Virus record (IMG/VR): IMGVR_UViG_3300009068_000024
Location: 1 to 64,000 of that record
Reading direction: 5' to 3' (one strand)
DNA from: a virus
DNA: 64,000 nt
The notes beneath the pieces were generated by a model. The model was not told the origin of the DNA and searched no databases. It worked only from the letters and a program-made list of their open reading frames with translations. Each line of letters begins with the position of its first letter. Positions within the stretch are counted from its first letter, which is position 1. Positions 7,811-47,298 of this stretch are shown here, in pieces. A program made the position numbers and the translations under genes.

Positions 7811-7884
7811 CGCGGGGTAGAGCAGTTCGGTAGCTCGCTAGCGTCATAAGCTAGAGGTCGTAGGTTCAAATCCTGCCCCCGCAA
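7811..7884 (+). tRNA. tRNA-Met(CAT), initiator-type body with altered anticodon arm
   Basis: CGCGGGG acceptor with C1:A72 mismatch, AGCAGTTCGGTAGCTC D arm, CAT anticodon, GGTTCAAATCC T arm; CCA not encoded. Confidence 0.93.
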
Positions 7885-7910
7885 CGCAGTAACGACAATA
7901 GGAGAATGAC

Positions 7911-8052: not shown

Positions 8053-8348
8053 GGGGATGACTGGTTTCGACAGTTATTCTGAAGTTGGTGAAGCAAGCAG
8101 AGATGACAGTATCTCTTGAATCTGTCAAAACAATAAATGCTAATACATCTGCATACGCTCTAGCCGCGTGATTTAATCGCAACGCTTAGGCCCCTGACAA
8201 AGCACTAGTTCTAGGTGGGCAGTCAGGTTTTAAATAAATAGAACAAACCCTCTCGTAATACCCTGCAGTACCGTGGCTGGTAAAGCCTAAGCTTGTAGAA
8301 GAACAATTGATCCATAGCTGGACCGGGGTTCGACTCCCCGCATCTCCA
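8053..8348 (+). ncRNA. ssrA: tmRNA, tag peptide ANTSAYALAA
   Basis: 5' GGGGATGA..GGTTTCGAC, 3' T arm CGGGGTTCGACTCCCCG-CATCTCCA; resume context ATAAAT-GCT, tag ORF 8139-8171 ending YALAA-stop. Confidence 0.95.
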
Positions 8349-8406
8349 CGCTTGTAGACAAAGGAGCGTAAAGCGGTCTACCCGTCCTAGGCAACGGAAT
8401 CTCCAA

Positions 8407-28641: not shown

Positions 28642-30067
28642 ATGTTTAATCCCGACCTAATAAGAGAGTTCTCAATGGGGTTCAGATTTGATTTAACCAA
28701 GGACTCCGATTGCTTGCATCAATACAGAAGATACCTACACAAATCAAGCCTTGAGTGTACCGAGAGGTGCGACGCCGACAATGAGGGTTTTTGTCTAGAA
28801 AAAATTTGCACCGTTTGCTTAGATAAGGTAATGTAAAGCTATGACCGATTTTATAAACGACCCTGAACGCAACTCCGACCTAGCCGACTGGCTAGACTAC
28901 GGAAAGAAACAAGGCTGGATAGTTCCACAAGTTGTGTGCAACACACACGACGGAGTGCCTATGACTGCGACCGAACAGAACGAGTTTGACGAGGGTGGAG
29001 ACCCTTGTATTCACGTTATCCGTATCTTTGAAAGTGAAGAAGAACAAAAGCAGTGTCTCGAACACTGGGAGTAGCCAAATCACCATTTAAAAACGTCCCG
29101 TAAAATGTAATTAACCCTACAACGGAGACGATAATGCAACACATAGAGCTACACGTTATTAACAACGAGGCTGACGCTAGCCAAGCCGAAGAGCTTGGGC
29201 TAACTACGTTTGGCGTCTTTGAAGTATGCGAAAACTGCGACGAGCCGATTGGTTATACACCTAATGGTTTCTACCCTTGCGTCATTGTTTTAATGATCGA
29301 CCACAACGACGAGGACATTGAGTTCCTGCTATGTGACGGTTGCGTTTCACCTATTCTTTCGCCCGGATTTGTGGCTTGATTTTCTTTTATAAAACCTGTA
29401 TCATTTAGATATGGAACCTCAAAAACAATTCATCACACCTGCTCAATTGAACTGGCGATTACTACACCGAACCTACGGATTTGTAGATGGCGAGTGGTAT
29501 TACATACACAAAAATAAACCTACATTTAGTATCGTAATAGAGTTTATTGACAGTAATCCCGACATAGACAAAAGATACCAAGAGTGGTTGGACACTCTTT
29601 TTAACCCTTTAGACGAGAATTTTTAATATGGACATACACAAAAGAAAAGAAACCGAGATCTCGCTGAAATACAAAATTCGCACAAGAAGTTATGGATTTA
29701 TAGATGGTCAGTGGTGGTTTATTATGAACAACCGAAAACTTTTTGAAGTGGAAATAGAACTTTACATTTCAGCTGACGACGACAAGCTGTATGAAGCTGG
29801 GTTGAAATACGGTAATCCGTTAGCCGAGTGGTGGTAATTGCTATGATACGAGCTTATTTAGAGGTAGATCCGGATTTATTGAACGCATATATCTATTCTG
29901 GACAACTGAAATACATAAACGGTGAGTGGCGTTGGGATAAAAATGGATTTGCCAACGACATAGTTTTTACTGAACCGACATCTAGGGGTTATTCGTTAGG
30001 AGTTTCACTCAAACAATACTTACAAAGTCAAGGTGATCTAATTCACGAATTGACTTACCAAGACTAA
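28642..30067 (+). CDS. Six small hypothetical early genes (28642, 28841, 29134, 29411, 29628, ~29843)
   Basis: Consecutive ORFs after a TTGACT promoter; the last three share (R)xYG(F)(V/I)DG(E/Q)W. Confidence 0.6.
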
Positions 30068-30107
30068 AAGTTATACAATAAAACTACAAAGACGGAAGGA
30101 CACTAAA

Positions 30108-30641
30108 ATTCACACTTCACAAATAATGCTAGTTGTAGCAAACACTCACGAACAGGCGAGAGGAATAGTAGCCGACAAGTTTAGCGATAGCGAACCACGC
30201 TGGTCTGACTGGTGCGAGGTTTCATCTAATACAGGTATCAGTTTCGCTGGGCGTTGGGAAAGTGAAAACATCTTAGGCACACAAGCCGAGCTGGATACAC
30301 TATGCTACGCAGATGATCCTGAAACTGCTGAACAGGCGATTACTGCTTATCTAAAACACCGATATATGGACATAGACCAATACAGAAAAAAGCTCTATGA
30401 CGAGGGTAAGCAAGATATCTTATTTAGCCACAACTACGACCACGAGGCAGAATGGTCTAGGACAGACGATATGCCACTTTATTACGCCAAGAAACTAGCT
30501 GAACTTTTATCTAACGAATGGACATCTGATAGTGCTATATATGATCTGGAAACTTGGGATACCAACTTAGCTGACTTCCGTAAGCGTGTAGATAACAGCC
30601 CTCAACATCAGTTCTTAGTTTTAGTGGATTTCCACTTCTAA
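30108..30641 (+). CDS. Hypothetical phage protein (possible ATT start; first ATG at 30126)
   Basis: GAAGGA RBS 7 nt before in-frame ATT-CAC; WSDW...AGRW and LVDFHF end are common in phage early proteins. Confidence 0.7.
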   Translation: MHTSQIMLVVANTHEQARGIVADKFSDSEPRWSDWCEVSSNTGISFAGRWESENILGTQAELDTLCYADDPETAEQAITAYLKHRYMDIDQYRKKLYDEGKQDILFSHNYDHEAEWSRTDDMPLYYAKKLAELLSNEWTSDSAIYDLETWDTNLADFRKRVDNSPQHQFLVLVDFHF

Positions 30642-30742
30642 AAACTTTTCCAAAAAACTTTTATAGAAACTTGACAAACTTCTAACAAAAGACTTAGACT
30701 TTCTAAGTAAGCCGAAATCAACCCTGAAAGGACACAAACAAA

Positions 30743-31264
30743 ATGGCTGAAACAAACAACGCAAACATCTTGGTAGGTTATGCCCTATACACAGAGTTTC
30801 GCAAAGACGGACACACTTTACAGGTAATCTTTACACCTGAAAGTATGTCTGAAACTGCTGACGGAACAAGTGTGTATGTTCCTGCTTCTGTATGGCGTAG
30901 GCAAGTATCAAGCTACAACCCTCGCCGACCTTGGCGTTCATACTCGCAAGAGTGGAACACCATAAACAACAGGAAAGAGTATCGCCTTGCTAATGGTGGT
31001 TCTGCCGAAACACTAGACGAGGACTTGGCTAAAAAGTATTCTGTTGCTGGTCTTGTATTTATGGACAGAACTTTTGAGAGCCTAGTTGCTCAAAGTTGGG
31101 AACTTCACAAAGAACCTATTGTTGTTGAGTTCTCAAAAGAGGATCTAGTGGACACTCAAAGTTGGAACACCCCTAATGCTCTTATCCGTAGAATTATGCG
31201 TTCTCGTAAAGCTCTTGGATTTTCTGACGAACTATTTGCTATTCCTACTACTACTGCTGTATAG
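30743..31264 (+). CDS. Hypothetical protein
   Basis: TTGACA promoter, GAAAGGA RBS. Confidence 0.75.
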   Translation: MAETNNANILVGYALYTEFRKDGHTLQVIFTPESMSETADGTSVYVPASVWRRQVSSYNPRRPWRSYSQEWNTINNRKEYRLANGGSAETLDEDLAKKYSVAGLVFMDRTFESLVAQSWELHKEPIVVEFSKEDLVDTQSWNTPNALIRRIMRSRKALGFSDELFAIPTTTAV

Positions 31265-31297
31265 TCAAACTATCAACCCCGAAAGGACACAAAACAA

Positions 31298-32335
31298 ATG
31301 ACTATAACCATTACTGCTACCCTCAACGAAAATGAGAAAGTAGCACTAGATAGGCTAAACAACCTAGAAAAGTTATCTGGGAAGTTGCCTGAACTGCTAA
31401 TCGCAGTTGGCTCGCAAGCTGTAAATGCTGACCAAGCCGAGATCATCAAAAACAACCTATCCAAATCTGGTGGGCTTACTATGCGTGGGTCTGCCGAAAC
31501 AACCAAAAAGAAAGTAAAGGAAAAAGTGGCTGAAACACTAAACGCTGACGAGGCTCTAATGCGACCTAATGGCGAAATGTATTACACTCGCAGTTGGGGC
31601 GAACACAAAGATAGTGCTGTCCTAAAACAACTCCGTTCTATCAACCAATTCGCACTATTCTATGGAAGTCCCGGAACAGGTAAAACTGCTCTTGTTGAGG
31701 CTACTTTCGGTGAGGAAGTCCATACAATTCTCGGTTCTGGCGATACCGAAGTTGCTGACCTAGTCGGTGGCTATGTCCAAACTCCTAGTGGCAATTTTGA
31801 GTGGATAGACGGGGCATTGGTAAAAGCAGCCGAAAGAGGCGAGGTCTTGTTCATTGACGAGATCGGTCTTATTGACCCGAAAGTTCTATCGGTTGTCTAT
31901 GGTCTAATGGACGGCAGACGAGAACTGCCAATTACTCAAAATCCCGAAAGAGGCACTATCAAAGCCAAAGACGGATTTTATGTTGTCGGTGCTACTAACC
32001 CTAACGCTGTCGGTGTTGTTCTATCAGAGGCGTTGCTCTCACGATTTACAGCACAGGTAGAAATCACTACCGATTGGGTGCTTGCTAAGAAGTTGGGCGT
32101 TCCTGCCATTATCACAACTGCTAGTCAGAACTTAGCTAAGAAGTTTAGTTCTGGCGAAGTTTCTTGGTGTCCTCAAATGCGAGAGCTACTTGCTTTTAGA
32201 GATCTGGAAAAAGTGTTCGGAACTAAGTGGGCTGTTAGCAACCTAATCTCGTCAGCACCCGAACTAGATAGACCTATCGTTGCCGAAGTTCTATCTAGGG
32301 TTTATGGCGAGGAAGTAAAAACTGCCAAAATCTAG
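31298..32335 (+). CDS. MoxR/CbbQ/CobS-type AAA+ ATPase
   Basis: Walker A GSPGTGKT, Walker B LFIDEI, ATNP, EALLSRF. Confidence 0.92.
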   Translation: MTITITATLNENEKVALDRLNNLEKLSGKLPELLIAVGSQAVNADQAEIIKNNLSKSGGLTMRGSAETTKKKVKEKVAETLNADEALMRPNGEMYYTRSWGEHKDSAVLKQLRSINQFALFYGSPGTGKTALVEATFGEEVHTILGSGDTEVADLVGGYVQTPSGNFEWIDGALVKAAERGEVLFIDEIGLIDPKVLSVVYGLMDGRRELPITQNPERGTIKAKDGFYVVGATNPNAVGVVLSEALLSRFTAQVEITTDWVLAKKLGVPAIITTASQNLAKKFSSGEVSWCPQMRELLAFRDLEKVFGTKWAVSNLISSAPELDRPIVAEVLSRVYGEEVKTAKI

Positions 32336-32466
32336 GTCGTGTCCTACCTAGCGTTTTGGTCGGGGGTAGGTAGTTATGGTTGGCTACCTACCCTCAATTT
32401 CCAACTTGACAAAATCTAAATCAACCCTCTAAAATCTAAATACGACAACTGAAAGGAAAAAATCTT

Positions 32467-34305
32467 ATGTCGCATTTCGGAACTAACTCAAATGGCGTAA
32501 AGAATACACCGAAAGAGTGGCTACCTATTGGTAAGACCATTGGTGAGCTTGCTAACAAGTGGTCAGGTAGAACTGACTTGATCGCTTATGTTGGAACAAA
32601 ACTAGACGCACCCGTTCCTGCTCTATACAACCCTATTTCGTCAGAGATAGAAGTAAATACGGAAATTGCTTTTGGCACTATTCCACCTAGTTTTATTACT
32701 GACTTGTCCGATAGAGATAACCAATACGAGTTTCCAAAGGCAGTAGGGGCTATCTACCACGAGGCTTGCCACGCTAAGTTCTCTCGTTGGTCATTGGAAC
32801 AAAGTTCTAAGGACTTGACTAGAAAACAAAATCAAGCTCTCCACTTGTTAGAGGAAAGTCGCATTGAGAAGTTTGGTGCTATGGCTATTCCAACTAATCG
32901 TTATTTCCTAACCTCTTGTGCCTTAGAGATCGTATTAGCCGAGTGTGATGTTGATACGCTTTCTAAGATGTCTGAAACTAGGGCATTAGCACAACTATCA
33001 GGGTTAGTGTTGGCAAGAGTAGATGCTGGTATTCTTTACAGAAGTGATGTTGAGGGTATTGCTGAAATGCTAGAAACAAAGTTGGGTCTTGACTTTATTG
33101 AGAAGTTGAGAGAACTATGGCTAAAAGCACAAGCTCATACTGACCACCACAACGCTACTGAACTTTACCCTCTCGCTATTGAGTGGGACAGACTTGTATC
33201 TGAACGAGCCAAAGAAAAGGGCGAGGACGATACAGGTTGTTCTTGGGGCGAGGGCGAGGGCGAAAGTTCTGGCGAGGGCGAGGGCGAGGGCGAGGGCAAG
33301 AGCAAGGGTCGCAGTAAGACCATTGAGGAAATGCTAAAAGAAGTTCAGAACGCCAAAGAGAACGCTGAAACTACTGCTAATGACGAACTATCAGAACAGC
33401 AGACAGGCGAGAAGTCCAAAGAAAAGGCAAAAGCACGATCTAGTGAAAATGCCGAAAAGCAGAAACACCAACAGGTAGGTCAGCGTGTATTTGGTGAGCC
33501 TGAAACTACAAGAGCAAGTGGTTCAGGTTCTAGTCTTGTAGAAACTCGTAAGCCTACTTCTGCCGAAAGAGCTAGTGCTGTTCTAATCTCTAAGTTGCTT
33601 ATGAAAGCAAAATACAGGAACAGAACTGAAACTAAGATCAACTCGGTTCTGCCACAGGGTAGGTTGCGTTCTAGGGCTATGGTTCAGCGTGAGGCTCTTA
33701 GGTCTAAGGGCGTTATGTCGCAGGTAGAAACTTGGCGACACAAAACTCGTAAGCACACCGAAACACCTAACTTGTCTATCGGGATTATGGTAGATGTTTC
33801 AGGTTCTATGGGTTCTGCTATGAAACCTATGGGTTCTACTGCTTGGATTTTGAGTGAGGCAGGTAGGCGTGTTCAGGCTAAAACTGCTATGGTCTATTTT
33901 GGTTCAGGCGTGTTTCCAACCTTGCGTGTTGGACAACACTTAGAGGAAGTTAGTATCTACACAGCACCAGACGGAACTGAAAAGTTTGACTTGGGCTTTC
34001 AGGCACTAGACGGACAACTAAACCTACTTGGTGGCAATAGTGCTAGGTTGCTAGTTGTTGTTTCTGACGCTTGCTACACCAACGAGGAAATCCGAGCTTG
34101 TAAGTCTTGGCTACAACGCTGTAAGCAAGTTGGCGTTGGTGTTGTTTGGATTACTTACGATCAGGGCGTTTATGCTAGTGCTGTTATTGAGGGTTCAGGG
34201 GCAGAACTCGTAAAGGTCAAAGGTGCGATTACCGAAGTTGCTGAAATCGTTGGCAAGGCAGGGGCAGAGGCTCTTACCAAAGCAGGTATGCGAGTAGGGC
34301 GATAG
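32467..34305 (+). CDS. CobT-like protein: N-terminal HEXXH domain + C-terminal vWA domain
   Basis: YHEACH, LEESRIE, EG-rich linker, MIDAS DVSGSM, VVSD. Confidence 0.88.
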   Translation: MSHFGTNSNGVKNTPKEWLPIGKTIGELANKWSGRTDLIAYVGTKLDAPVPALYNPISSEIEVNTEIAFGTIPPSFITDLSDRDNQYEFPKAVGAIYHEACHAKFSRWSLEQSSKDLTRKQNQALHLLEESRIEKFGAMAIPTNRYFLTSCALEIVLAECDVDTLSKMSETRALAQLSGLVLARVDAGILYRSDVEGIAEMLETKLGLDFIEKLRELWLKAQAHTDHHNATELYPLAIEWDRLVSERAKEKGEDDTGCSWGEGEGESSGEGEGEGEGKSKGRSKTIEEMLKEVQNAKENAETTANDELSEQQTGEKSKEKAKARSSENAEKQKHQQVGQRVFGEPETTRASGSGSSLVETRKPTSAERASAVLISKLLMKAKYRNRTETKINSVLPQGRLRSRAMVQREALRSKGVMSQVETWRHKTRKHTETPNLSIGIMVDVSGSMGSAMKPMGSTAWILSEAGRRVQAKTAMVYFGSGVFPTLRVGQHLEEVSIYTAPDGTEKFDLGFQALDGQLNLLGGNSARLLVVVSDACYTNEEIRACKSWLQRCKQVGVGVVWITYDQGVYASAVIEGSGAELVKVKGAITEVAEIVGKAGAEALTKAGMRVGR

Positions 34306-34454
34306 CACAAAAGTTCCGAGCAAGTCAAGTTTCTATTTCCTTTCTCTTGGCTTGCTCGGAAATCGTTATCAAAAAAGAATTGGAAAAATCCTTGACAAAT
34401 CTTTATTAGGAAAAGTAAAGTTGGATTACAACCCGAAATGGAAGGAACTACCAA

Positions 34455-34778
34455 ATGTGCGACAACCCGAACCACGACCACAGCTCTAACGAGAACTTGT
34501 TAGACCTAATCAAACAAGAGATCAACGAACCAGAGGACATAGCCTCGGTTGCTATCCAAATCTTTTGTGCTATGTCCTCGGCTCTAATCCAAATTGACCA
34601 GCCGAACCCTGCTATCTATTCTGCTTTTGAGCCTATGAAACTTCTAGCTGAAAAGTTAGGCGATCAGGAACTAAGCGACATAGTTATCACTTGCGAAATG
34701 GAACACCACGAGGCTATTTCTAAGCTGATTTCTAAAATGGGACACCCTGCCAACAAGAGAAAGAAGTGGGGTAAATAA
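34455..34778 (+). CDS. Hypothetical protein
   Basis: Promoter + GAAGGA RBS. Confidence 0.7.
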   Translation: MCDNPNHDHSSNENLLDLIKQEINEPEDIASVAIQIFCAMSSALIQIDQPNPAIYSAFEPMKLLAEKLGDQELSDIVITCEMEHHEAISKLISKMGHPANKRKKWGK

Positions 34779-35579
34779 ATGCCAAATTGGGTCTATAACA
34801 CGCTAACTATTTCAGGCAAGCCTGACGAGATAAAAGCCTTTACGGAAAAAGCTGATAAGGCAATACCGACAAGTAATAACAATGGCAAGACTATTGAGTT
34901 AGGGGAAACTGACGGACTTTCTTTCTGGAACTTCATAGCACCACCCGAGGAAAAATACGATCTCTATTTCGCCACTTCTGACGGAACAGCAGACCAAACT
35001 TGGGGCTGGTATGGCTGGAACAGCGAGAATTGGGGAACTAAGTGGGACGCTAACGATACGAGTATGTCCCCGTCCCCTGACGAGATAACCGAACATACCG
35101 GTAGTGTGATTTATTATTTCTCTACTGCTTGGAGTTATCCTGAACCTGTTTTTAGAGCTATGGCAGAACAGCACCCGAACTTACACTTTCACTTGCGTTC
35201 CGTTGAGGAACAAGGCTGGGGTGCTGAACTATCGGGAGCTGACGGAAAAATCTACACCGATAAGACCTGGGACATACCGAGTAGTCATCAGGAGTGGGTT
35301 GATACCGACCAAGAGGGAAGTTGCTCTTGCCAAAATGACGATGAGGAAAATTGGTATGATGACTGCCCGAGAGATGATCAAGAGTTTATTGTTGTTATTC
35401 AGAAGTCTTACCGAGTAAGAACCAACACAGCAGAAAACGCTTACGAGCTTGCTATGGAACAGGGGAACGACCCTGACGAGCAAATGGAAGTTCTTGACGA
35501 AACGATAGCTTGGGTTCTTGACGATCAGAGAGTTAGGCAGTATCCTCTTTTGAGCAATAAAGTTCCTGAATTGGAATAA
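34779..35579 (+). CDS. DUF1281/YubB ferredoxin-like (Api92-like) protein
   Basis: MPNWVYN.L.I.G, WY.W...NWGTKWD, F.TAWS.P motifs. Confidence 0.85.
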   Translation: MPNWVYNTLTISGKPDEIKAFTEKADKAIPTSNNNGKTIELGETDGLSFWNFIAPPEEKYDLYFATSDGTADQTWGWYGWNSENWGTKWDANDTSMSPSPDEITEHTGSVIYYFSTAWSYPEPVFRAMAEQHPNLHFHLRSVEEQGWGAELSGADGKIYTDKTWDIPSSHQEWVDTDQEGSCSCQNDDEENWYDDCPRDDQEFIVVIQKSYRVRTNTAENAYELAMEQGNDPDEQMEVLDETIAWVLDDQRVRQYPLLSNKVPELE

Positions 35580-35762
35580 ACAAACTTCGGTGAGTTTATG
35601 CTTTCTCTCACCGAGAACGGATAGTCATTTCCCCTCTGCTATCCGTTCAGGGACTAGGTAATTTTTTGGTGGTTCTCTTTCTTACCTAGTCCCTCACTAA
35701 ACTTGACAAAACTTGACACAGGGGTATAGGCTAAACAAACCGAAACCGAAAAGGAAAATGAA

Positions 35763-36047
35763 ATGCTATTTAGACAAGCTCTCGGACACATAATCGCTGA
35801 CCACCGATACGACAACAAGCTCACACTACGCCAAGTAGTAAATAGAGGATCAGGGCGTATCTCACTTACTTACCTATGGGAGATAGAGAAAGCTCGCAAA
35901 GAAGTCAGTAGTGAAATGCTTATAGAAGTTGCTCAATGTTTAGCTATCGAGCCTAGTGATCTAGTAATCAAAATCGGTATGGTTATGTGTGGTGGAGTTC
36001 CAAACTACTTGCCGAAAGAACTTGACGAACAGCTTGTAAATCTATAA
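35763..36047 (+). CDS. XRE HTH regulator, ClgR-like
   Basis: LFRQALG.I....R....LTLRQV....ISL.YL.EIE..RKE.SSE.L..VA..L matches the actinobacterial ClgR pattern. Confidence 0.75.
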   Translation: MLFRQALGHIIADHRYDNKLTLRQVVNRGSGRISLTYLWEIEKARKEVSSEMLIEVAQCLAIEPSDLVIKIGMVMCGGVPNYLPKELDEQLVNL

Positions 36048-36078
36048 ACTGAACTTATCCAACTGAAAGGAAATCAAA

Positions 36079-36498
36079 ATGGATAACAGAACTGAACCAC
36101 AGGCAACAGAAATGAAAATGTCTAACACTTGCTCTTGCGAGGTCGAGGACGAAACAACAGGCGAAATGACTTGGAGTGAGGAGTGTTTCGGTTGTTTTGA
36201 TGATGATAAGCAATACTTCACAGACGAGTTCCTAATGCCATACCTGACCAGTAAAGGTTGGGACGAGGACACGATCATCAGAGTTGTTGGCGAGAAAATG
36301 AATTGGGACAACACGAGTGGTTGGACAGAAGTTCCTGCTAAGGACTTACTAAAAGCTCTTGCCATAAATGGCGAATACACACTAAGCGTTGAGATTACGC
36401 CTGAAAAGGAAATGGTAATTACCCGATCAAGCCACGATGAATACGGAGCTAGTTTTAGATTTGAGTTATCACCTGAACAGGACTATAATCCTGAATAG
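36079..36498 (+). CDS. Hypothetical protein
   Basis: GAAAGGA RBS; SSHDEYG motif. Confidence 0.7.
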   Translation: MDNRTEPQATEMKMSNTCSCEVEDETTGEMTWSEECFGCFDDDKQYFTDEFLMPYLTSKGWDEDTIIRVVGEKMNWDNTSGWTEVPAKDLLKALAINGEYTLSVEITPEKEMVITRSSHDEYGASFRFELSPEQDYNPE

Positions 36499-36511
36499 GA
36501 TAACTAAATAA

Positions 36512-36826
36512 ACTTTCATTAGGCATACCGAAACCTAAACCTAGAAGTCTTAGTTTTAGGTGGAGAACCAGAGGTGTTCGTAGAACCGATGTTGGTGGTA
36601 TGGGGATTACTACCCTGAAAACCTAGTGAAATCCGACCAATGTATGTCGCTAAACTACGCTTGTTCCTTAGCAAGAGAAAAAACTAAGGGTCTTGACTTC
36701 CAGACCTAAACTATAAGCCCTATTGGAGTTGATGGTAAGAACTATCCGGTTTTCTTTTTTTGTATTTTATTCTCTCTCCCTAAAAGAAAAAAATGCTAAA
36801 CCTGAGTAAGTTGATAAACTGCTCAC
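36512..36826 (+). ncRNA. Putative structured intergenic RNA ending in a pseudoknot
   Basis: TTTCATTAGG/CCTAGTGAAA enclosing three hairpins, four further hairpins, no ORF. Confidence 0.5.
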
Positions 36827-36850
36827 CTAACTTCTTAGAAAAGGAAATCT

Positions 36851-37150
36851 ATGAAATACGATCTATACGCAAATGAGGACAACAACTTTATCCCTGATGT
36901 AGTCATTACAAAAGTTGAGGGAGCTTGGCTAGAAAATGCTGGCAGACAGATTTGGTTTGAGTGGCGAGAAACTGAACAATGGTGTCAAATGGAAATTGAC
37001 GAGGGCTTTTGGCTAATCACCAACATAAAATACACACCGGATTTTGAGGAATGGCTTGACGAAAACCTAGACCAATACGACAGCTTAGAGTTTATGTTTG
37101 ACCTAAATGACCTAGTGCCGAACCACTACAAGATAGAGCTTGATAAGTGA
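36851..37150 (+). CDS. Hypothetical protein
   Basis: AAGGA RBS. Confidence 0.7.
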   Translation: MKYDLYANEDNNFIPDVVITKVEGAWLENAGRQIWFEWRETEQWCQMEIDEGFWLITNIKYTPDFEEWLDENLDQYDSLEFMFDLNDLVPNHYKIELDK

Positions 37151-37347
37151 TCAATTGCGAAACCTGTAAGGGCAGACCCCTAGTTTGTAAAATGTATGCT
37201 CACGCTAATCGGTGGTATTACTTCTGGTGGTGGCGTGGAGTTGATAGCTTGTTTTGGAAAATCCATCAAAAACTTTGTAAAGAAATTTGATTTATTCTTG
37301 GTTATCTGCTAATTTGGAAACATAACCCGAATGAAAGGAAAACAAAA

Positions 37348-37863
37348 ATGGGTATGGATGTTTATGGAAAAAATCCAAAAAGCGAAAAGGGAACTTACTT
37401 CCGTAGAAATGTATGGGGTTGGAGACCACTATGGGACTATTGCGTAGATAGATACGAGGACTTAGTTGGTGATGTTTCAGGACACTACAACGATGGTGAT
37501 GGCTTAGACGATACAGGTTCATTAGAACTAGCTAAAAGAATAAAAGCCGATCTAGCAGACGGAACAGCAAAAACTTACATAACAGCAAGGAACATTCACC
37601 TTTCTATCTTGCCGAGAGAAACTTGCGAACTCTGTAAAGAAACAGGTATTAGAACCGATAAGGTTGGCGTGGAAAATGGTATGCCTGAACAAAAGCTAGA
37701 ACCCGAAATGGCTATTTTGCTAGGTAGAGAACAGGGTTGGTGTAATGGCTGTAATGGCGAGGGCAAGAAAGATAGTTGGGAAACTAACTACGATTTGGAG
37801 CTTGATGACATAAAAGAGTTTGCCGAGTTTCTAGCCGATAGTGGTGGATTTGAAATTTGCTAG
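37348..37863 (+). CDS. Hypothetical phage protein with CxxC pair
   Basis: MGMDVYG...YFRRNVWGWRPLW...FAEFL..SGGFEIC. Confidence 0.75.
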   Translation: MGMDVYGKNPKSEKGTYFRRNVWGWRPLWDYCVDRYEDLVGDVSGHYNDGDGLDDTGSLELAKRIKADLADGTAKTYITARNIHLSILPRETCELCKETGIRTDKVGVENGMPEQKLEPEMAILLGREQGWCNGCNGEGKKDSWETNYDLELDDIKEFAEFLADSGGFEIC

Positions 37864-37955
37864 TGAAACCACTACACTAAGACCATAGGCTTACGCCTGA
37901 ACACCTAAGCAAGTGTCTAAACTGCTTACCAAAACAACAACCAATTAGGAGCAAA

Positions 37956-38363
37956 ATGGAACAAAAAATAAGTGTTGCTGGATTAGTAGCAACAACACCA
38001 AGACACCTAGTAACAGCAGACGGACTAGACATTGTTAGTTTCCGTCTAGCGTCTAGCAGTAGAACTTATGACCGAGCAAAAGGTAGATGGGTTGATGGAA
38101 ATACAAATTGGTTCACTATCACAGGGTTCAAAAGTTTAGCAACTACCACAAGTGCGAGTGTTGGCAAAGGCGATAGAGTTATCGTCATTGGAAGTGTCAG
38201 AGTTAGAGATTGGGATAATGGCGATAGAGCAGGAACTAGCGTTGAAATTGAAGCTGACGCCATTGGACACGATCTAAATTGGGGAACGAGTAAGTTTGAG
38301 AGAACTATTCCTAGCAGACTAGACCCTGAACCAGACCGAGAAGATTTGACCCTAGAAGTTTAG
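37956..38363 (+). CDS. ssb: Single-stranded DNA-binding protein (actinobacterial SsbB-like)
   Basis: FRLAS..R..D...W.DG.TNWFT...F..LA...S..KGDRVIV.G..R...W...EIEADAIGHDL.WG. Confidence 0.92.
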   Translation: MEQKISVAGLVATTPRHLVTADGLDIVSFRLASSSRTYDRAKGRWVDGNTNWFTITGFKSLATTTSASVGKGDRVIVIGSVRVRDWDNGDRAGTSVEIEADAIGHDLNWGTSKFERTIPSRLDPEPDREDLTLEV

Positions 38364-38477
38364 GGACAGAAAAGAATTCGCCAAACTAAAAACTTGGCGA
38401 ATTTTTTTTGCCGACACGCTTGACTTACCGATACCGATAAGGAACAATAGAACTATCCCGAAACTAAGGAGAAAAAA

Positions 38478-38861
38478 ATGGGAGAACAAAAGCAAGCCCT
38501 AGTTATCAAGACAGCAGGGGACATTGAGGTTGTGAGCTTTACTGCCGAAACCGAATACGAAGTTATCAAGGAAGTCGTTGGCGGTTATTTAGAGATCGTT
38601 AGATTATCGCCAACTATGACTATGTGGATAAACGAGGAAGGCAAATTAGACAAACTGCCTTACAACCACAGAGCAACTGCTATTTGGAACTTTTATTTTG
38701 GAGCTACGGACATAATCGCTGGTAATGTAATCATCACCGGTGGAACTGATACTAACGGAAACTGCTTAGGACTAAGCTTGGCAGACGGAAACAAAATTCA
38801 GGTTTTAGTATCGGCTACTAGACTAGAAAAAGCCGAGATGAAAAAAGGGGAAACCAAGTGA
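38478..38861 (+). CDS. DUF3846-like protein
   Basis: VGGYLE.V...M.INEEGKL..LPYN.RAT...D.I.G.V..TG. Confidence 0.75.
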   Translation: MGEQKQALVIKTAGDIEVVSFTAETEYEVIKEVVGGYLEIVRLSPTMTMWINEEGKLDKLPYNHRATAIWNFYFGATDIIAGNVIITGGTDTNGNCLGLSLADGNKIQVLVSATRLEKAEMKKGETK

Positions 38862-41782
38862 AAGTGGATTACGAAGTATCAAGAATAGCGATCTGGAAAG
38901 TAGAGAACGCTAAGACAAAGTTAGAACTTACCTATTCTGCCGAGTATGGAGCAGAGATAAAAGCAAGCTTGACTTACCGAACACTAGGGGGAGAGTGGAT
39001 AAAAACTATCAGGTATTACAACCGAGCCGAGTGTCTAATGGATTTCGCTACCCTAACCAATAATAAAAAACTGATCAGGGTAATAGAGAGAACAGAGCAG
39101 TATCAAAGCTATTTAGAGAATAGTTAGACACGCCAAAAAATAAATGAAAATAAACTTGACTTAGATTAGACAAAAGACTAAGTTAGAAGTATTGGAAGTT
39201 CCAATAGCCAAAATCGGCACAGAACTAAGGAAGTAAATAAATGGAAAATCAAGAACCACAAGAACCACAAGAAGTAAAAATCACAAGCAAGAAAGCAAAA
39301 GAAGCTTACGCTTTACTAAAAGCCATAAAGGAACAAATGGCAGACTTGGAAAAGCAGAAAGCACAGGCTAACGAAATCTTGGCACAGGCTCTAAATGGTG
39401 CCAAGCGTGGAGTTGTTGCTGGACAGGGATCGTTTATTATGGCAAGTGGTAAAAACACTAGTTTTGACCGAACCCTGATGAAAGAGAAGTTTCCGTTGGC
39501 GTTCCAAGAGTGCCTAAGAACTACGGAATACGAATACATCAAGCTTGTCTAACAAGAAGTAGTTATCCCCTAATAAACCACACCGAGAGTTTGGATTAGG
39601 GGATTTACTTTTTACCGAGAGAAGTGGTAATGTAGAGATACCACCGAAAATGAAAGTAGAAAAATGACCAAGTATGTAAAACACCTAAACAATGATGAAC
39701 TACTACAACGCCTAGCAGACGAGTTAGTTCAGGCACACAAGGAAACAGGCATAGACCTAGGCTATTGGGAAACAGCCAGAGAAGTTGTAGAACGCTTTTA
39801 CAGCGTGGAAGTAAAACTAACTATCAGGAAAGCAAAGAAAAAATGACCGAACAGGAAAAGCCGAAAGGCGATTTTAGTGATCCAAAAAGTTTCTATTTCA
39901 ATGACTACCTAAGCAACCACATAGGACACAAGCTTGAAGTTGTTGAGTATTGTTGTGGAGTGTGTGGAAAGACCACCGACTTTATGCTCCGTTGTTTCCA
40001 AGATGACATAGATGATACTTGTTTCAACGACCCTGCCGGTATTGCTAGGGAATGGGTGAAACCACATTGCGAGTGTAATCACAGCCCTTGGACAAAAAAT
40101 GACTAAGTGTAAGTGTTGTAATGGCGAAAATGTATTCACTTGCGAGAGTTGTGGAAACGGATTAGCAAGTGAAAGAAAAGCTTTTACCGATAGTTCAGGG
40201 ATAGAGTTTGACCCGACTACCGAACACGCTATTTATGTTTGTGTAGATTGTAAAAAAGAACTTGACAAAAAATAATCAAGTTTAGTAAAGTGGAACTACC
40301 ACCGAAAAACAAGGAGTAAAAAGTGGAACTAAATGAAACCGAACAAAAGACCATAAAGCGTATTTATGATTTCTACGCTACTAAGGAAATCAACGCTGAT
40401 GAAGCTTTACAAAAGTTAGAAATGCTGATCAACGAAAATGAAATCTGTCAGGGTTGTCTTGCCGAGATAGACGAGAATAATCCACTCATAGACGCTGAAC
40501 GCTATGCTGTAAGCGACAAAATCGGTTATTGCGATAATTGCTATGACCCGACACCAGACTAAAAACAAGCTTGGCAGTTAGTCCCCCCTAACACTACTGC
40601 CAACGAGCAAGGGTTTTTCTCATTTCTCCCTTGCTCCACACCTAAGCAAGTGTATAAAAGGCTTATTTTTATTTAGGGAACACACCGAGAAATAATCTTG
40701 ACTAATCTTAGGCAGTTGTGGTTAGATTAGTTAGCACCAAAAAAAATAAACCACCGAAAAAGGAGAAACAAAAATGGGCGATAGAGCAACTATCCACATC
40801 ACAAGCCAGAGCTTTAGTTCACCGATAGAACTTTATGGGCATTGGTCAGGAACAGATAACGCCAAAGCAGTTGCCAAGGTATTAGAGAGAACCGACAGAA
40901 TTGGAGATGCCAATTATCTAACAGCACAGGTATTCTATGAATACGCTGTAATTCTAGGTGGTTATACAGGACACCTAAGTTTTGGCATTAGAGCAACTAA
41001 CGCTGAACCTAGCGACACTTGGGACGATAATCCGGTCGTTATCCTAAATGCCGATACAGGTTCAGTTGAGTATGACGGACAGACTTACACAGCTAATCAG
41101 TTTGCGTTAGCGTATGCCGATAAGGTAAGTTAGAACTACACCGATAAGGGTGGTAATCCATAAGGGTTATCACCTTTATCACTAACAAGGGAAAGAAAAA
41201 TGGACGAGCAATTAGAACAACTAAAAGAAAAATTACTAGATCTAAAATCTAGACGAGCAGGGTTGTTATCTTTATTGGAAGGTATTACCGAGCAAGTAAA
41301 AACAACACCAAATAAAGACCTAGCGTTTCTAGACAACTTGCTAGCACAGCTAGAACAGGCAACAATAAAATCTAATCAACTAGGCGAGATAATTGCCGAA
41401 ACTAGATTAGAAATTGCTAAGTTTAGAAAAGAGTTTGGCTTAGACTAGCCAAGCTGGTAAAGTTAGAACACAACCAAAAGAGGAGAACCAAATGAAAACA
41501 CTTGCCGAATTCAAAAGAGTATTGGCTCAACCAGACACCACACTAACTATCATCAAATACCTAAACACCAAAACAGGTGCCGAGATGAACCACAAGTTTC
41601 TAAATCAGGTTAGAACTATCGGGAAACTACAAACCAATAGCGTTGCCCTGAAAGACAAGGCAGGGAAACTATCGTGGTTAGATCTTGATAAAGCTAGTAA
41701 GTGGAGTTTCACCGAGAACATAGCAACTTTCGCTGATGAGTATGTAATTCTGGTTTATCGGGTTGAGAAACACGCTGAATAA
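38858..41782 (+). CDS. Run of small hypothetical early genes (38858, 39241, 39664, 39843, 40099, 40323, 40774, 41200, 41492)
   Basis: Most have their own promoter or AGGA/GGAG RBS; several are Cys-rich. Confidence 0.65.
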
Positions 41783-41863
41783 GCTTGACTATTCCCGAAT
41801 AGGTTTAGTAAAGTTGAGAGTAGTTAGGTAATCGCCTAACCTAAATGAGAGTAAGGAACTCAA

Positions 41864-42337
41864 ATGAACATAACACTTATCGCAGTAATGCCATTGGTTT
41901 ATCTGGCTGTTGTTGCTATCCCCCTAATCACCATAGACATTAGAGAACACCGACTACCGAACAAAATTGTTCTCCCTTTTGTTGCTATGGGTCTGGTTAC
42001 CGACATTGGTGCTAGTTTCGCTGGTGGAGAGTGGTGGAGATTAGGACTAGCTCTGGCAGTTGCGTTCGGTATCGGTATCTTAGGTATGTTTGCTAACTAC
42101 TTTGACTTTATCGGTATGGGGGACATCAAACTATTCTTTGGTAGTTCCCTAGTAATCGGCTGGTTCGTCTGGTGGTTGCCGTTGGTATTGGTAATCGCAA
42201 CGCTCATTACCGGTAGTATCGCAATTTTCTATCAGGTATTTATTCGTAAGGCTAATGCTGGAACTAGCGTTCCACTAGGACCTTATGCCATTGTTCTAGC
42301 CCTAATCATTGGAACTTACGGAGTTATGAGTATCTAG
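41864..42337 (+). CDS. Prepilin peptidase (A24 family)
   Basis: IDIREHRLPN and GMGDIKL catalytic Asp motifs, VPLGPY, multi-TM. Confidence 0.9.
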   Translation: MNITLIAVMPLVYLAVVAIPLITIDIREHRLPNKIVLPFVAMGLVTDIGASFAGGEWWRLGLALAVAFGIGILGMFANYFDFIGMGDIKLFFGSSLVIGWFVWWLPLVLVIATLITGSIAIFYQVFIRKANAGTSVPLGPYAIVLALIIGTYGVMSI

Positions 42338-42519
42338 GGAAGTAAGCCGAACCCCTTAGCCTAAATGGTTAGGGGGTTTAGCTTTACCCGAAAAAAGACG
42401 ATCTGGTGAAACTTGCGACACGCCAAAAAATAAATAATCTAAATACTTGACTATTTCCATACGGAGAGAGTAATCTGGAAGTAGTTAGGCAAACGACCTA
42501 ACAGAATACGGAGATAAAA

Positions 42520-42729
42520 ATGAGTGGATACGACATTGGTGGTGGCTATGATGGCTGGAAACTATCTACCCCTTGGGATAACGAGCGAGAGATTAGCGTT
42601 AGCTTTGAGTGTGCCGAGTGTGAAGTTGAGAATGAAACCGAAGTTGTCGTTGGTGGCAGGTCGGGAGATGTTGATGTTGAGTGTGCCGAGTGTGGCAAGA
42701 ACAACAGCGTCAGTTTTGGTGATGACTAA
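42520..42729 (+). CDS. Small acidic zinc-ribbon protein
   Basis: YDGWKL; two CAEC motifs. Confidence 0.65.
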   Translation: MSGYDIGGGYDGWKLSTPWDNEREISVSFECAECEVENETEVVVGGRSGDVDVECAECGKNNSVSFGDD

Positions 42730-43285
42730 ATGGACGAGTTTATCAGAACTACAACAGGACAGATAGCACTTTGCCCTAAATGCGAAACAGAACTAGATGT
42801 ATTCTGTGTTTGCGCAAACAGCAACCCTATTGCTTGCGATAACTGCTGTGGATGTGAACAGCACTAACTAGCAACAACACCCGAGCAAGTGTCTAAAAGG
42901 CTCAACCTAAATCTTTGGAAAGGCAAAAGTGAAAGATAGAAAATCTAAGATCGCTTGTTGGTCTTGTGGCAAACTCACCGAAGTAAAATACATTGGTGAA
43001 AACACACATAAACAAGAGTGCCAAGAGTGTAAAAATTGGCGAGCTGAACGCTATGCTGTATTGTGTAAGAACACCGAAAAAGAAAGATCTAAAAATGCTA
43101 AATAAAGTTGCGAGATTACTTAGGGGAATTAGTAAAGTGCTAATGACCACAGGACACCGACTTAGTTGGTATGCGAACAAGCTTGACAGCACAGCAAGAA
43201 AAATTAGAAACGCTAGAAAATAAACTTGACAAAGTTTCCATACAGCAACTAAACTAAATACATCAAGACGAAAAGAGGTGAGAAA

Positions 43286-43513
43286 ATGGGAAAAAAAGTT
43301 GATACTTGGACTTGGTTTGTTGCTCGCTATGAGCAACAGGGATACAAATCTCTAAACCAATTCGCTATCGCAACAGGCTTACAAAAGTCTAGCCTTAGCC
43401 GATACTTTCATAATCAACGACACATTCCGTCAAATACTTTGGCTGTGTTGTGTCGTGAGCTGGAAGTTTCTCCAACTGAACTACTGATCGCAATTGGCGA
43501 GAAAGTAAAGTAA
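43286..43513 (+). CDS. XRE/Cro-like HTH protein
   Basis: SLNQFAIATGLQKSSLSRYF...P...L..LCR.L.VSP.EL; TTGACA promoter. Confidence 0.85.
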   Translation: MGKKVDTWTWFVARYEQQGYKSLNQFAIATGLQKSSLSRYFHNQRHIPSNTLAVLCRELEVSPTELLIAIGEKVK

Positions 43514-43579
43514 GTGCCGAACCTGAGCAAGTTCTAAAAAGGCTCAACTAAAAAACTAATAGAAAGTTGCTGTGAAGTT

Positions 43580-46500
43580 ATGAAAACATTTTTGTTGTTG
43601 CTAGGTCTATGGTCTGCTGGTTGCGGTGTTTATTGGGGGATTATAGTTGAGCATAATCACCGAGCATTAGAAATAGGTCTTAGTCTGGCGTTCCTGATAC
43701 TATTTGTTGATACACTATTAGCAGTTGCCGAGCTTCCTAGATTTATTGGAAAGCGTAATAGGCGTAAATAGACTTGGTAGAGGGTTTCTTTCATTTCCCC
43801 TCTGCCGAACACACCTGAACAAGTGTCTAAAAGGTTCATTTATTTTTTAGAGATCGGGAATTTTTTATGCCGATTAGAAGTTATTATTTATGTAATGACT
43901 AACTACAAAGGAGACAAAATGAAAAGAACTAAATTCACACCAGAACGAGTTGTTGAGCTGGACAGACTAGACAGACTTAGAACCTATGACTTACTTTATA
44001 GGGCTATGTTTGCCGGTCTAATCCCCTTTGAGCCGAACCTAAGACTAAAGCGTATGGTCAGGGTAAAGAAGTCTTAGAGAGATTTCTAGAGATCCAAAAA
44101 ATAAATGCCGACACGCTTGCTTATTTCCATTTGGAAATGCTAAAGTTGTATTAGTTAGGTAAATCGCCTAACAGATACGGAGATAAAAATGAAAAAAGCA
44201 TTAGACAACATTGGGCTTGATAAAGAAAACTTTGAGAGCAACCTTGATGATGGAATTACGATCACCGATAATCAGTGGGAAAAAATTGCCGGTGAGATAG
44301 ATGGCAGAGTTGAGAACTTTGTTTTGGAACTGCTAAACATTTTGGCAGCCGAAGTCCAAGAAGGAAATTGGGACTAAAAATAAATTGCGACACGCTTGAT
44401 TATTTCCATACGGAGATGCTAAAGTTGGAGTAGTTAGGTAAGTTGCCTAGCAGTTACGGAGTAAAAATGAGCAAGCAAGATTACAAGGTATTCTGGTGGA
44501 TACAGATTTATCCATACGGATACGAAAAGGACAGCGAACTTAGAAACATTGAGTTCTCTGGTGTTATTAGTGCCGATAATGAAGATGATGCTATGGATCA
44601 GGTTAGGGAAGATAACGACATTATTGGTGATGATTTCATTGGCTATCCTGAACCTGACTACATTGATAGTCACCCCGACATTGAGATAGTTTGGACAGAG
44701 GATATGTCTGCCGAGCCTGTGTTGGACTTGACTAAAGACGAGTAAGCCCTGCGAGTAGAAAGCCCTTAGCCGAAACGCTAGGGGTTTTTTACTGCTGAAC
44801 ACGCCTAGATAATCTTGACTAAATGCCGATAAGTGATCTAGGATTTTAGTAGTTAGGTAATCGCCTAATAAAAATAAAGAAAGTAGAAAAATGAAACTAC
44901 AAGCAACCAAGTCAAGTCCAGTCTGGCAAAAGATTATTGCCGATAATAAAGAGTGGTTTTCTAAATCAACACTGGAGTTTTTCAAATCAACTATTTTTTG
45001 GTCAAGCCTGAAAGAAACTGAACAGGGTCTAAAGTTTGTAACTAGCGAGTGGGATTACCAGCAGGAGACTAAGGTATTCACCATTAGGTTAGTTACCGAT
45101 AGGGGCATAGAAACTATCAGTCTATACGGAGAGTATTCCAGCCTTATAGAAGCCTTACGAGCCTTATAGAGATCGTAAAACTGAACCCTTGCCGAAGCTC
45201 AGGCAGGGGTTTAGTTCTATCTAGACACGCCAAAATAAATTAGTTAGATACTTGACGGAATAAAATTGGTGGTGGTAGAGTTTTATTATTAGTTAGGTAA
45301 GTTGCCTAACGGAAATGAGAAAAATGGAAAACTTTCTAGACATCAACAAGGTTGCTAAAATTGTTGGACTGCCAGCAACACAGGAAACTTGCCCAGGCTG
45401 TTCCGAACTTATTACGGACACTAATCCCCTAATTGACGCTGAACGCTACACCGTAAATTCTTACACTGGTTATTGTGAGAACTGCTACGACCCAACCCCT
45501 TACTATCCCAAGATAGATTAGGGGGGGGGGGATAATCCAGATCTGGTTTATCAACACGCCAAAACTAAATAAAGAAAATGTTTGACTATTCCCAGCTGGA
45601 ACCGATAAGATTTTATTAGTTAGGAAAAATCACCTAGCGGAAATGAGAAAAAATGTTTTACTTACAGACAACATCAACCCTAGTAAGACTTTCTAATGGA
45701 GAAACTTTTACTCAATGCGAAATCTGCGGTAGATGTTATGAGAACGAACACTGGGACAGAACCAAGATAACCAGGACTGACTGGGCTTGGACTTGCGACC
45801 ACAGCGACCAGGACACCGGAATACTAGATTAGCCTGGTTGCCGATAAGTCCCCTGGTAGAGATACCGGGGGATTTATCTTTACCAGGTGCGACCTGGTGC
45901 CAGGATCTAAAATCCAGGGACAAGCTTGCCAGGATAAATTATTAGACACGCCAGGAAAAGATTTGACTATTCCCAGGTGGAACTGGTAGATTTTTATTAG
46001 CCAGGTAAAACCCCCTGGCAGAAAGAAAAAAATGAACCAGGAACAAATTGAATTGTTTGGAATGATAGCTGATGACGCCGGTATGTCTATTGACTACTGG
46101 GCAGACACAGCGCACCACGACACAGAAAAGCACACTTACCAGATTACTTTATTACCGGACTGCGTTGATGAAACTGCCGGTGTTGTGAGCAAAACAATTT
46201 CTTACCAGGATTTACTAGACGCTACCAGGAAGCTAGCAACCGGTGAAGTAAGCGTGAACCCGGCCACCAAGTCAGTTTGCCAGGCTATCATTAGCGACCC
46301 GGCAGACGTTGATTATGACGCTACTGATACCGATGTTATTGTCCAGGTTGCGATGTTTGGTGAAATCGTATTCGGCTAGACAGCTAAGAGATGTCCCCCT
46401 GGTGAGAGCCGGGGGGGGGGGGATTATTTCTATTCTGGCCAGGACTGCCAGGGCGAGCTAGCCAGGAGCCAGGAGCCAGGAGCTAGATACGGATAATAAA

Positions 46501-46852
46501 CCAGGAACCAGGATCTAAATAATTAACCAGGTCAAGCCGGACACACTAGGTTTAGATTAAAGCCGGTTAGGTTAGTTATTATATGCTTAGATTATTAAGC
46601 AACTTTATTTAGTTATACGGAAGGTATAAAATGAAAAAATTTATTACAAGAGCTGCAATTGCTTTACTACTAGCTATTGCCGGAATTCTTTCAACACAGA
46701 TATCCAGGCTTTATCTAGAGCAATATGTTTTCTTTGATGACAATGCCGAAACCCTGGCTATGTACGCCAGGTGGCAAGTTGGTACCTGGATTTTTGCCAG
46801 CCTATCTTTGATCTCCCTGGCCTGGGCTATTGTTTCTACCAGGAAAGATTAG
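43580..46852 (+). CDS. Small hypothetical early genes (43580, 43919, 44189, 44467, 44891, 45324, 45653, 46032, 46631)
   Basis: Mostly monocistronic promoter-gene-terminator units; 45324 shares a Zn module with 40323. Confidence 0.65.
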
Positions 46853-46923
46853 CCTGGAGTACCTGGTTTAATGCGGTAGATTATATAAATCTAAGTTACT
46901 CCCCTGGGGCGTGTTCGCCCTGG
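45770..46923. repeat. Dense CCWGG cluster (~38 sites)
   Basis: Manual count of CCAGG/CCTGG in coding and non-coding DNA, including (GCCAGGA)x3 at 46461-46481. Confidence 0.85.
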
Positions 46924-47298
46924 GGGATTACCTCTATTCGGTATAAGGTAAAATGTATTGAGATTGGAGTGTGCTATGGAAATACCGAGCCCGAAACTTA
47001 ACGCCGCTTATCAAGAATATAAGAATGGAACTCTTGACCCTAAAGAGCTAACCATAGAAGAAAGTCTTGATCTGCAGTATGAATACTTTTTACATCAAAA
47101 GCAAATTAATGATGCCGATGTGATAAAGTTTGTAAAGCTTGTGATGATTGCTTCAGAATCTGAAGTAAACGATCAAGAGTAGCTATTAACAGTGCTACAA
47201 TCTAAAAATACCGTTTAAAGACAAACGGTTATGGGAGAACCCAACCAATAACGACCGAGTACTAACTCACCTCAAAAATCAGGAAAGGTAGGTCGCCA

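Follow-up and report, generated by a model that had tools for sequence, protein, structure and literature searches.

Can a phage message carry, in the hairpin that closes its 3' end, the complement of its own translation start? The question is raised by the first 64 kb of IMG/VR record IMGVR_UViG_3300009068_000024 (hereafter the window), and in particular by a series of strong stem-loops with C/U-rich loops that stand directly past stop codons between 32 and 44 kb. An earlier note on this DNA had proposed that these loops are antisense to ribosome-binding sites (RBSs) of the same phage and constitute an RNA-only feedback network, and all of the hairpins and matches that it listed are present in the sequence. 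The analysis described here indicates that in two adjacent and widely conserved units, in which the terminal loop appears to display the antisense of the stretch from the Shine-Dalgarno (SD) sequence to the start codon of the unit's own genes, loop and RBS have co-varied across dozens of relatives of this phage, and that the messages therefore probably throttle their own translation.

The hairpins fall into five G+C-rich regions, H1 to H5 (Table 1), all of which fold far better than shuffled sequences (z from -3.0 to -7.9). They start 2-8 nt past stop codons, H1 overlapping the stop, and none is separated from its gene by a promoter-like site. They are best described as stem-loops at the putative 3' ends of short early transcription units, a unit being composed of a promoter, one to three genes and one or more hairpins, the limits of the units and the transcript ends being drawn from sequence only.

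Loops and leaders of two adjacent units

The first unit consists of the genes g0 and g1 and a gene for a MoxR-like ATPase, and ends in H1. The H1 loop (CGUGUCCU, 8 nt, positions 32338-32345) holds GUGUCCU, which, as had been claimed, is antisense to an AGGACAC box ahead of each of the three genes (at 30097, 30729 and 31284, the GGACAC core starting at 30098, 30730 and 31285), with a loop-leader duplex energy of -11.5 kcal/mol. The H1 stem includes the stop codon of the ATPase gene, with the loop 3-10 nt past it, and the U run CGUUUUGG follows the stem directly. Together with the adjoining hairpin H1b, H1 folds at -41 kcal/mol (z -6.5). The second unit carries a vWA-type gene and ends in H2, the loop of which (UUUCUAUUUCCUUUCU, positions 34330-34345, 25-40 nt past the vWA stop) matches 9 nt of the vWA leader itself and 10 nt of the leader at 36079. 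In two relatives, G001 and G002, the H2 stem has undergone pair-preserving changes, and the 3' part of the loop, AUUUCCUUUCU, which is antisense to the vWA leader, is invariant (designations beginning with G or L refer to relatives throughout).

Evidence that these matches are more than coincidence comes from comparison between loci. A first set comprised 15 loci in which the g1-ATPase-vWA trio is conserved at 42-88% protein identity. Here, a loop in the ATPase-vWA spacer matched the g1 initiation region over 7-9 nt in eight of ten lineages, that region ranking first or second among 48-181 RBS-like sites. The leader and loop words are AGGACAC and GUGUCCU in the window, GGACACAA and UUGUGUCC in L003, GAGACAGG and CCUGUCUC in L007, GACACCCA and UGGGUGUC in L008 and L015, and AAGGACACU and AGUGUCCUU in L012. 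A larger set was assembled by profile search from the best 80 of 225 relatives which, with the window, gave 81 loci, an ATPase open reading frame (ORF) being present in 77 and a g1 call in 63; removal of identical spacers left 55 distinct loci for the spacer test, and the vWA test was conducted on 61 distinct loci. Loops of each locus were scored against the initiation regions of the same locus, and the scores compared with those obtained between loci in 5000 permutations.

The longest match between spacer loops and the g1 region was 8.00 nt within loci versus 5.83 nt between loci, and that to the ATPase region 7.55 versus 5.76 nt; the corresponding duplex energies were -15.4 versus -11.9 kcal/mol for g1 and -14.7 versus -11.7 kcal/mol for the ATPase gene, with none of the 5000 permutations reaching the observed value in any of the four comparisons. 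Matches of at least 8 nt to g1 or the ATPase gene were present in 46 of the 55 loci. Similarly, loops situated within 150 nt past the vWA stop matched the leader of their own vWA gene over 7.25 nt within loci versus 5.50 nt between (0/5000), the match extending to at least 8 nt in 33 of 61 loci, as in TGACGGAAGGAC and AACGAAAGGAAA. Control comparisons behaved differently from these. Spacer loops scored against the initiation region of the downstream vWA gene gave 5.51 versus 5.28 nt (282/5000), with no gain in duplex energy (-10.5 within versus -10.8 kcal/mol between), and the unit that follows vWA, serving as a negative control in 53 loci, gave no signal (4.77 versus 4.69 nt, 1333/5000).

The matched words of at least 8 nt number 38 different sequences, most of which are more than runs of purines (for example CACCCAATG, TAACCTAGAGAG, AAACAACTATGA, GATAGGACAA and CAACCTACAA), and within their locus they are almost confined to initiation regions. 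Coverage by the matches is highest between positions -14 and +3 relative to the start codon. When the spacers were folded by minimum free energy (MFE), 63 of 70 antisense segments fell in a hairpin loop, and the segments were 73% unpaired, versus 42% for the spacers overall. The sequences of these loci thus show the hairpins, the complementarity, its display in loops and its co-evolution, and the complementarity between loop and RBS at H1 and H2 is kept by selection. The covariation demonstrates selection on pairing as such and not the sign of its effect. The earlier note had also asserted that loop sequences change in step with the RBS that they match, a point that a single genome cannot decide; among relatives the assertion is borne out for H1 (55 loci) and H2 (61 loci), and fails for H4b.

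Two observations on the leaders themselves may be added. The GGAAGGACAC box of the g0 gene (30097-30128) sits 23 nt ahead of the ATG at 30126, and an in-frame ATT at 30108, conserved in L003, is placed at normal SD distance, such that the true start of this gene may not be the ATG. In L204, L207, L229 and other relatives, the leader word AACGACGAAAGGA is common to many genes and may represent a group-specific extended ribosome-binding signal.

Table 1. Hairpins and complementary leader segments in the window, with the evidence attached to each
Feature	Position	Strand	Evidence or remark
AGGACAC box, g0 leader (gene 30126-30641)	30097-30103	+	Antisense to H1 loop; kept in L003, L004, L005 and L017
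AGGACAC, g1 initiation region (gene 30743-31264)	30729-30735	+	Antisense to H1 loop
AGGACAC, initiation region of AAA_5 (MoxR-like) ATPase gene 31298-32335	31284-31290	+	Antisense to H1 loop
H1, putative terminal hairpin of g0-g1-ATPase unit	32324-32360	+	MFE fold; terminator-like site; covariation in relatives
H1b, second strong hairpin, 15 bp, directly ahead of vWA promoter-like site 32406-32435	32362-32395	+	Fold
GAAAGGAAA, SD region of vWA-type gene 32467-34305	32451-32459	+	Antisense to H2 loop
H2, 16-bp stem, 16-nt loop, 8 nt past vWA stop	34314-34361	+	Fold z -7.0; match to own RBS; covariation in 61 loci
GAACUACCAAA, candidate partner of H3c loop, extending to the first base (A) of the start codon at 34455	34445-34455	+	Duplex energy
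H3a, H3b and H3c, three tandem hairpins 3' of gene 34779-35579	35586-35694	+	Fold z -7.9; pyrimidine-rich loops of 12, 12-14 and 20 nt
H4a and H4b, 3' of gene 40323-40562	40571-40636	+	Fold; compensatory stem change in L178 and L182
H5, 3' of gene 43580-43771	43774-43808	+	Fold; loop match generic
GAAAUGAGAAAAA, leader of small gene, 13-nt antisense of H4b loop (second copy 45640-45652)	45312-45324	+	13-nt match in this genome only

Possible action of the pairing and competing explanations

The explanation favoured here, to which a probability of about 0.6 may be attached, is that in the units ended by H1 and H2 the 3' loop pairs with the RBSs of its own message and hinders their translation. 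Once the 3' end had been transcribed, the loop would pair over 7-12 bp with the initiation region or regions of its own unit, either on the same mRNA molecule or from a stable 3' fragment, and the resultant loop-leader duplex would block binding of the 30S subunit. A message would accordingly be translated mainly during its synthesis, with autogenous dampening and a fast shut-off as the presumed outcome.

Several points weigh against this explanation. A duplex of 7-12 bp is short, and action in cis is indistinguishable from action in trans. Within this genome the H1 match (7 nt) and the H2 match (9 nt) were equalled by 45/200 and 74/200 shuffled loops, respectively, and decoys taken from the same locus gave the two units p values of only 0.24 and 0.063. 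The best spacer match is below 8 nt in nine of the 55 loci, L014 has no match at the ATPase-vWA spacer, L017 lacks a hairpin after vWA and L009 has no match there. The 55 loci also amount to fewer than 55 independent events because they are phylogenetically related. As to procedure, every hairpin with a 5-bp stem in the spacer was admitted as a source of loops, the null distribution being made by the identical procedure, and start codons were assigned by a simple rule, errors in which would be expected to dilute the signal and not to produce it.

The figures for single loops come from tests in which each loop and 200 shuffled versions of it were scored, by longest match and by duplex energy, against the initiation regions of this genome (65 at first, then 119). 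The earlier note had named shuffled C/U-rich loops as the yardstick for its matches. Measured in this way against the 119 regions, seven of the nine loops (H1, H1b, H2, H3a, H3b, H4a and H5) did no better than shuffled loops; H4b clearly surpassed them, with a 13-nt match that one or two of 200 shuffles equalled, and H3c surpassed them weakly (14/200). Neither did a rule of loops addressing their own unit emerge across the genome: the best partner lay within 3 kb upstream for 20 of 191 loops, 25.4 being expected, and preference for the own unit reached p<0.05 in 6 of 139 units, 6.95 being expected (Fisher p 0.9996).

A wider version of the favoured explanation can be put forward tentatively, and is considerably less probable than the explanation for H1 and H2 itself. 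A large group of lake actinophages might share a self-addressed mRNA design, in which several early operons write the antisense of their own SD-to-AUG stretch into the terminal loop and each message is translatable only while it is being transcribed, forming an RNA-only timer for each operon. Under this scheme H3 to H5 could be further members with partners still to be recognised, and the loops could serve as a phage-wide shut-off where genes share AACGACGAAAGGA.

A different possibility is that the 3' hairpins are excised as small RNAs that act in trans across units over the whole of the 32-44 kb region, and possibly on messages of the host or of rival phages. This appears unlikely, although the H4b loop offers something to it. 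The 13-nt word antisense to that loop (UUUUUCUCAUUUCU, positions 40614-40627) is present, as the earlier note had stated, in two distant leaders at 45312 and 45640, and it is this match that few shuffles equal. The loop reads UUUCUCUCAUUUC in G001, G002, L147, L168 and L178, in which 9 of the 13 nt are kept, and the same loop recurs in the L005 lineage, where two hairpins carry it on stems unrelated to that of H4b. Against this, the full 13-nt match exists in the window because the window has U where the relatives have C; both target leaders are unchanged in the relatives, and therefore only 9 nt pair there, the T to C difference of G001 and G002 going uncompensated in both targets. In addition, the loops of H5, H3a, H3b and H4a do not beat shuffles, the genome-wide tests were null, and H1-type loops do not match the leader of the neighbouring vWA gene. 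The distribution of the matched words points both ways: in seven of ten loci checked the word was restricted to leaders of genes upstream of vWA, whereas in the other three AACGACGAA was found also at the starts of genes that do not belong to the unit, with 4-6 such sites in each locus. These data give no support to a network that is phage-wide or directed at the host, and for host messages evidence emerged in neither direction. What survives of the feedback between loops and RBSs proposed originally is its operation in two units (g0-g1-ATPase with H1, and vWA with H2), for which covariation and a clean negative control can be cited; the region-wide network is not supported, the unit tests being null.

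Pairing could alternatively be real and have a positive role, the joining of 3' and 5' ends guarding the message from nucleases or returning terminating ribosomes to the start. Covariation would be equal under this explanation and under repression, since it does not give the sign of the effect. However, the paired stretch is the spacer between SD and AUG, and often the AUG itself, which is precisely the region that the 30S subunit must bind, and the one studied precedent, that of icaR, is a case of repression (PMC3868564). A positive role is accordingly judged improbable, to about the same degree as action in trans.

It is very improbable that all of the hairpins are plain terminator or stability elements and that base composition alone, with C/U-rich loops meeting purine-rich leaders, accounts for all of the loop-RBS matches. 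The seven of nine loops at shuffle level and the null genome-wide tests speak for such an explanation, and H1 has a U run while H4b and H5 stand ahead of U-tailed hairpins. For H1 and H2, though, it is rejected by the within-locus excess (0/5000) combined with null results in the same-locus and next-unit controls, and the loops of the wider hairpin family are not free to vary, TTTC falling within their last five bases in 14 of 18 cases compared with 0/2000 shuffles. For H3a, H3b, H4a and H5, taken by themselves, a plain terminator or stability hairpin plus a composition effect is the likeliest explanation.

Least probable of all is a DNA-level feature, in which short inverted repeats flanking genes are used in recombination or by a DNA-binding protein, RNA pairing being a by-product, for although complementarity on one strand is an inverted repeat by definition, the repeats have a length of only 7-12 bp and lie some 1.0-2.2 kb apart, one copy always lies between SD and start codon and the other in a local hairpin loop (63/70), and the 38 different words would require a protein whose specificity changes in every lineage.

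Relation to known systems

The earlier note held that no system of this form had been described, which is too strong: a report on Staphylococcus aureus describes a UCCCCUG motif in the 3' untranslated region of the icaR mRNA that pairs with the SD region of the same message and blocks the initiation complex (PMC3868564). The phage hairpins resemble icaR in having a C/U-rich anti-SD motif past the stop codon of the same unit; in the phage the next promoter-like site is located beyond each hairpin. They differ from it in belonging to a phage, in displaying the motif on the terminal hairpin's loop, only a few bases past the stop, and in a motif whose complementarity covers not only the SD but also the spacer and start codon, as a result of which it is unit-specific. 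Moreover, one phage loop serves up to three cistrons, and two neighbouring units each possess an address of their own. The icaR case rests on experiment, whereas the phage case rests on covariation in 55-61 loci.

Gram-positive bacteria possess small RNAs with C-rich loops, including 6C of Mycobacterium tuberculosis and the UCCC loops of RsaE and RNAIII. In common with RNAs of the 6C and RsaE type, the phage elements would use pyrimidine-rich hairpin loops to pair with purine-rich initiation regions without a chaperone; those RNAs, however, are encoded by free-standing genes with their own promoter and terminator and have many targets, whereas the phage loops are mRNA 3' ends addressed to their own unit. 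In the c4 antisense RNA of phages P1 and P7, single-stranded loops are complementary to an RBS that the same transcript carries, and related phages differ in loop and target together. Antisense loops directed at an RBS, and the joint change of loop and target, are thus common to c4 and the hairpins described here. Unlike the latter, c4 is a processed RNA encoded ahead of its target, and what it controls is an antirepressor. A search of positions 32200-46600 against Rfam 15 gave no match at gathering score, the five matches with E<=5 being to unrelated families far below their thresholds, and c4 was not among them.

Intrinsic terminators and 3' stability hairpins share with the phage elements a strong stem directly past the stop and ahead of the next promoter and, in the case of H1, a U run. 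The claim that most of the hairpins lack U tails needs qualification: H2 and H3a-c have none and differ from intrinsic terminators in that respect, H1 is followed by CGUUUUGG, and H4b and H5 have no U run themselves and precede a hairpin that does. A further difference is that the loops are 8-20 nt long and under selection, the usual U-tailed terminators of this phage having loops of 3-9 nt.

A literature search for terminator loops antisense to an RBS returned the icaR work and reviews and no phage example, its coverage being partial such that an earlier description is possible. To our knowledge, very few cases of pairing between 3' end and RBS within one bacterial message have been described, and each has been studied singly. 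With the pairing principle already known, what appears new here for phages is pairing of this kind set in terminator loops, unit-specific, group-wide and accompanied by unusually rich covariation. At least 55-61 distinct phage loci have kept the complementarity, and the 38 different matched words mean that the pairing can be read from sequence alone. These loci constitute a natural series of compensatory variants with which to ask how a short loop-leader duplex controls initiation. They also suggest a simple means by which a phage could limit and time its early proteins without a protein regulator, and a terminator loop that addresses one leader may be a portable and programmable part.

Remaining hairpins and genome context

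Among the remaining hairpins, H3c gives the most suggestive match. Its loop pairs with positions 34445-34455 over 11 bp, including one G:U, at -19.5 kcal/mol, the best of 119 partners and the first leader of its own unit, and an A to G change in L004 retains the pair as G:U. The pairing remains a candidate lead, suggestive only, with no divergent lineage carrying the H3c unit. The H5 loop (UUUCUUUCAUUUC, positions 43785-43797) matches AAATGAAAG over 9 nt, a generic match of the kind that shuffled loops give.

The genome contains 430 hairpins with loops of at least 10 nt, only nine of which have loops that are at least 80% pyrimidine; six of the nine are H2, H3a, H3b, H3c, H4b and H5, all intergenic, sense-oriented and located at 34.3-43.8 kb. 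Hairpins with long pyrimidine loops occur also in relatives, on unrelated stems. In 18 loops collected by rule, which include some orthologues and loops from L005, L006, L009, L012 and L014 (H5 and three L007/L014 loops having been dropped by an ORF filter), the ending TTTC mentioned above is accompanied by a loop start of TT in 12 (2/2000 shuffles). H3a, H3b, H4a, H4b and H5 belong to a conserved hairpin family characterised by long pyrimidine loops with UUUC at their end, and their RBS matches are largely what C/U-rich loops find among purine-rich leaders. In 14 of the 18 loops collected the UUUC stands directly ahead of the 3' arm, and the 3' arms are pyrimidine-rich too.

A number of other properties of the family were tried and set aside. 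Resemblance of the loops to the anti-SD word CCTCCTTTC of the 16S rRNA tail was weak, the mean score being 5.06 compared with 4.62 for shuffled loops, with 72/2000 shuffles as high. The notion of a Rho loading site was dropped as not decisive: in 78-nt windows ranked by C/G ratio, H4 came ninth and H2 fell outside the top 20, and H3, although the top 78-nt window by pyrimidine content, has a C/G ratio of only 1.57. The 14-mer GTTTCTCTCATTTC occurs in at least 117 stretches of viral contigs, nearly all apparently by chance, because only two among the matches listed have a flanking stem of at least 7 bp. A correspondence between the flavour of the SD and that of the loop among lineages was suggestive in some, where AAGGGG leaders go together with CCCCUUUC loops, but L014 runs counter to it, and the comparison within each locus was preferred.

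Two recurrent elements lie among these hairpins. The first is the motif ACAC-C-TAAGC-AA-GUGU-CUAAAAG-GCUUA, which fits an H-type pseudoknot and is found at approximately 37901-37928, 40638-40665, 42877-42904, 43519-43546 and 43811-43838, the U-tailed hairpins after H4b and H5 being two of these copies. Its stems occur in compensatory variants, namely ACAC/GUGU, AUAC/GUAU (L003) and GAAC/GUUC for the first, and TAAGC, GAGC or UGAAC for the second, and the core pattern was detected in 45 stretches of viral contigs (42 distinct contexts), often just past a stop codon or by tRNA genes. The second element consists of cassettes repeated ahead of small genes between 41780 and 46030, each of which begins with a terminator followed by a GACACGCCAAAAAATAAAT box, then has a promoter-like site of TTGACT type and, in the 5' leader, a hairpin (UAGUUAGGUAAnnnCCUAAC) ahead of the SD; they resemble the promoter/stem-loop cassettes of T4-type phages. 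From about 45800 to 46930, CCAGG/CCTGG is dense, even within cassette hairpins and promoter boxes that elsewhere are free of it.

As for the genome itself, the record is 137,503 bp long, has direct terminal repeats and is rated complete, and the window is the early region of this uncultured lake phage, whose nearest named relative is an actinobacterial lake phage. Similarity to named phages was limited to three weak matches; the only phages named were Actinomycetia phage DSL-LC01 and a Microbacterium phage, both matching weakly and in the ATPase gene only. A search of bacterial and archaeal species genomes returned 83 pattern matches, none of them related to the vWA protein, and gave no clue to the host. 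Between 28 and 47 kb lies a succession of plus-strand genes, many of them small and preceded by sites resembling TTGACA-N18-TAnnnT, which looks like an early region transcribed by host polymerase; promoter-like sites are located at 30050-30079 (g0), 30671-30700 (g1), 32406-32435 (vWA) and 34392. Pfam assigns AAA_5 to the ATPase gene, a single-stranded DNA-binding protein (SSB) to 37956-38363, an A24 peptidase to 41864-42337 and helix-turn-helix proteins to 35763-36047 and 43286-43513; it gives no family for g1 (173 aa) or for the vWA-type protein (612 aa), "vWA" being a label carried over from the earlier note. Towards the start of the window the phage carries a tRNA-Met gene (7811-7885) and a tmRNA gene (8053-8349), the latter with the tag peptide ANTSAYALAA.

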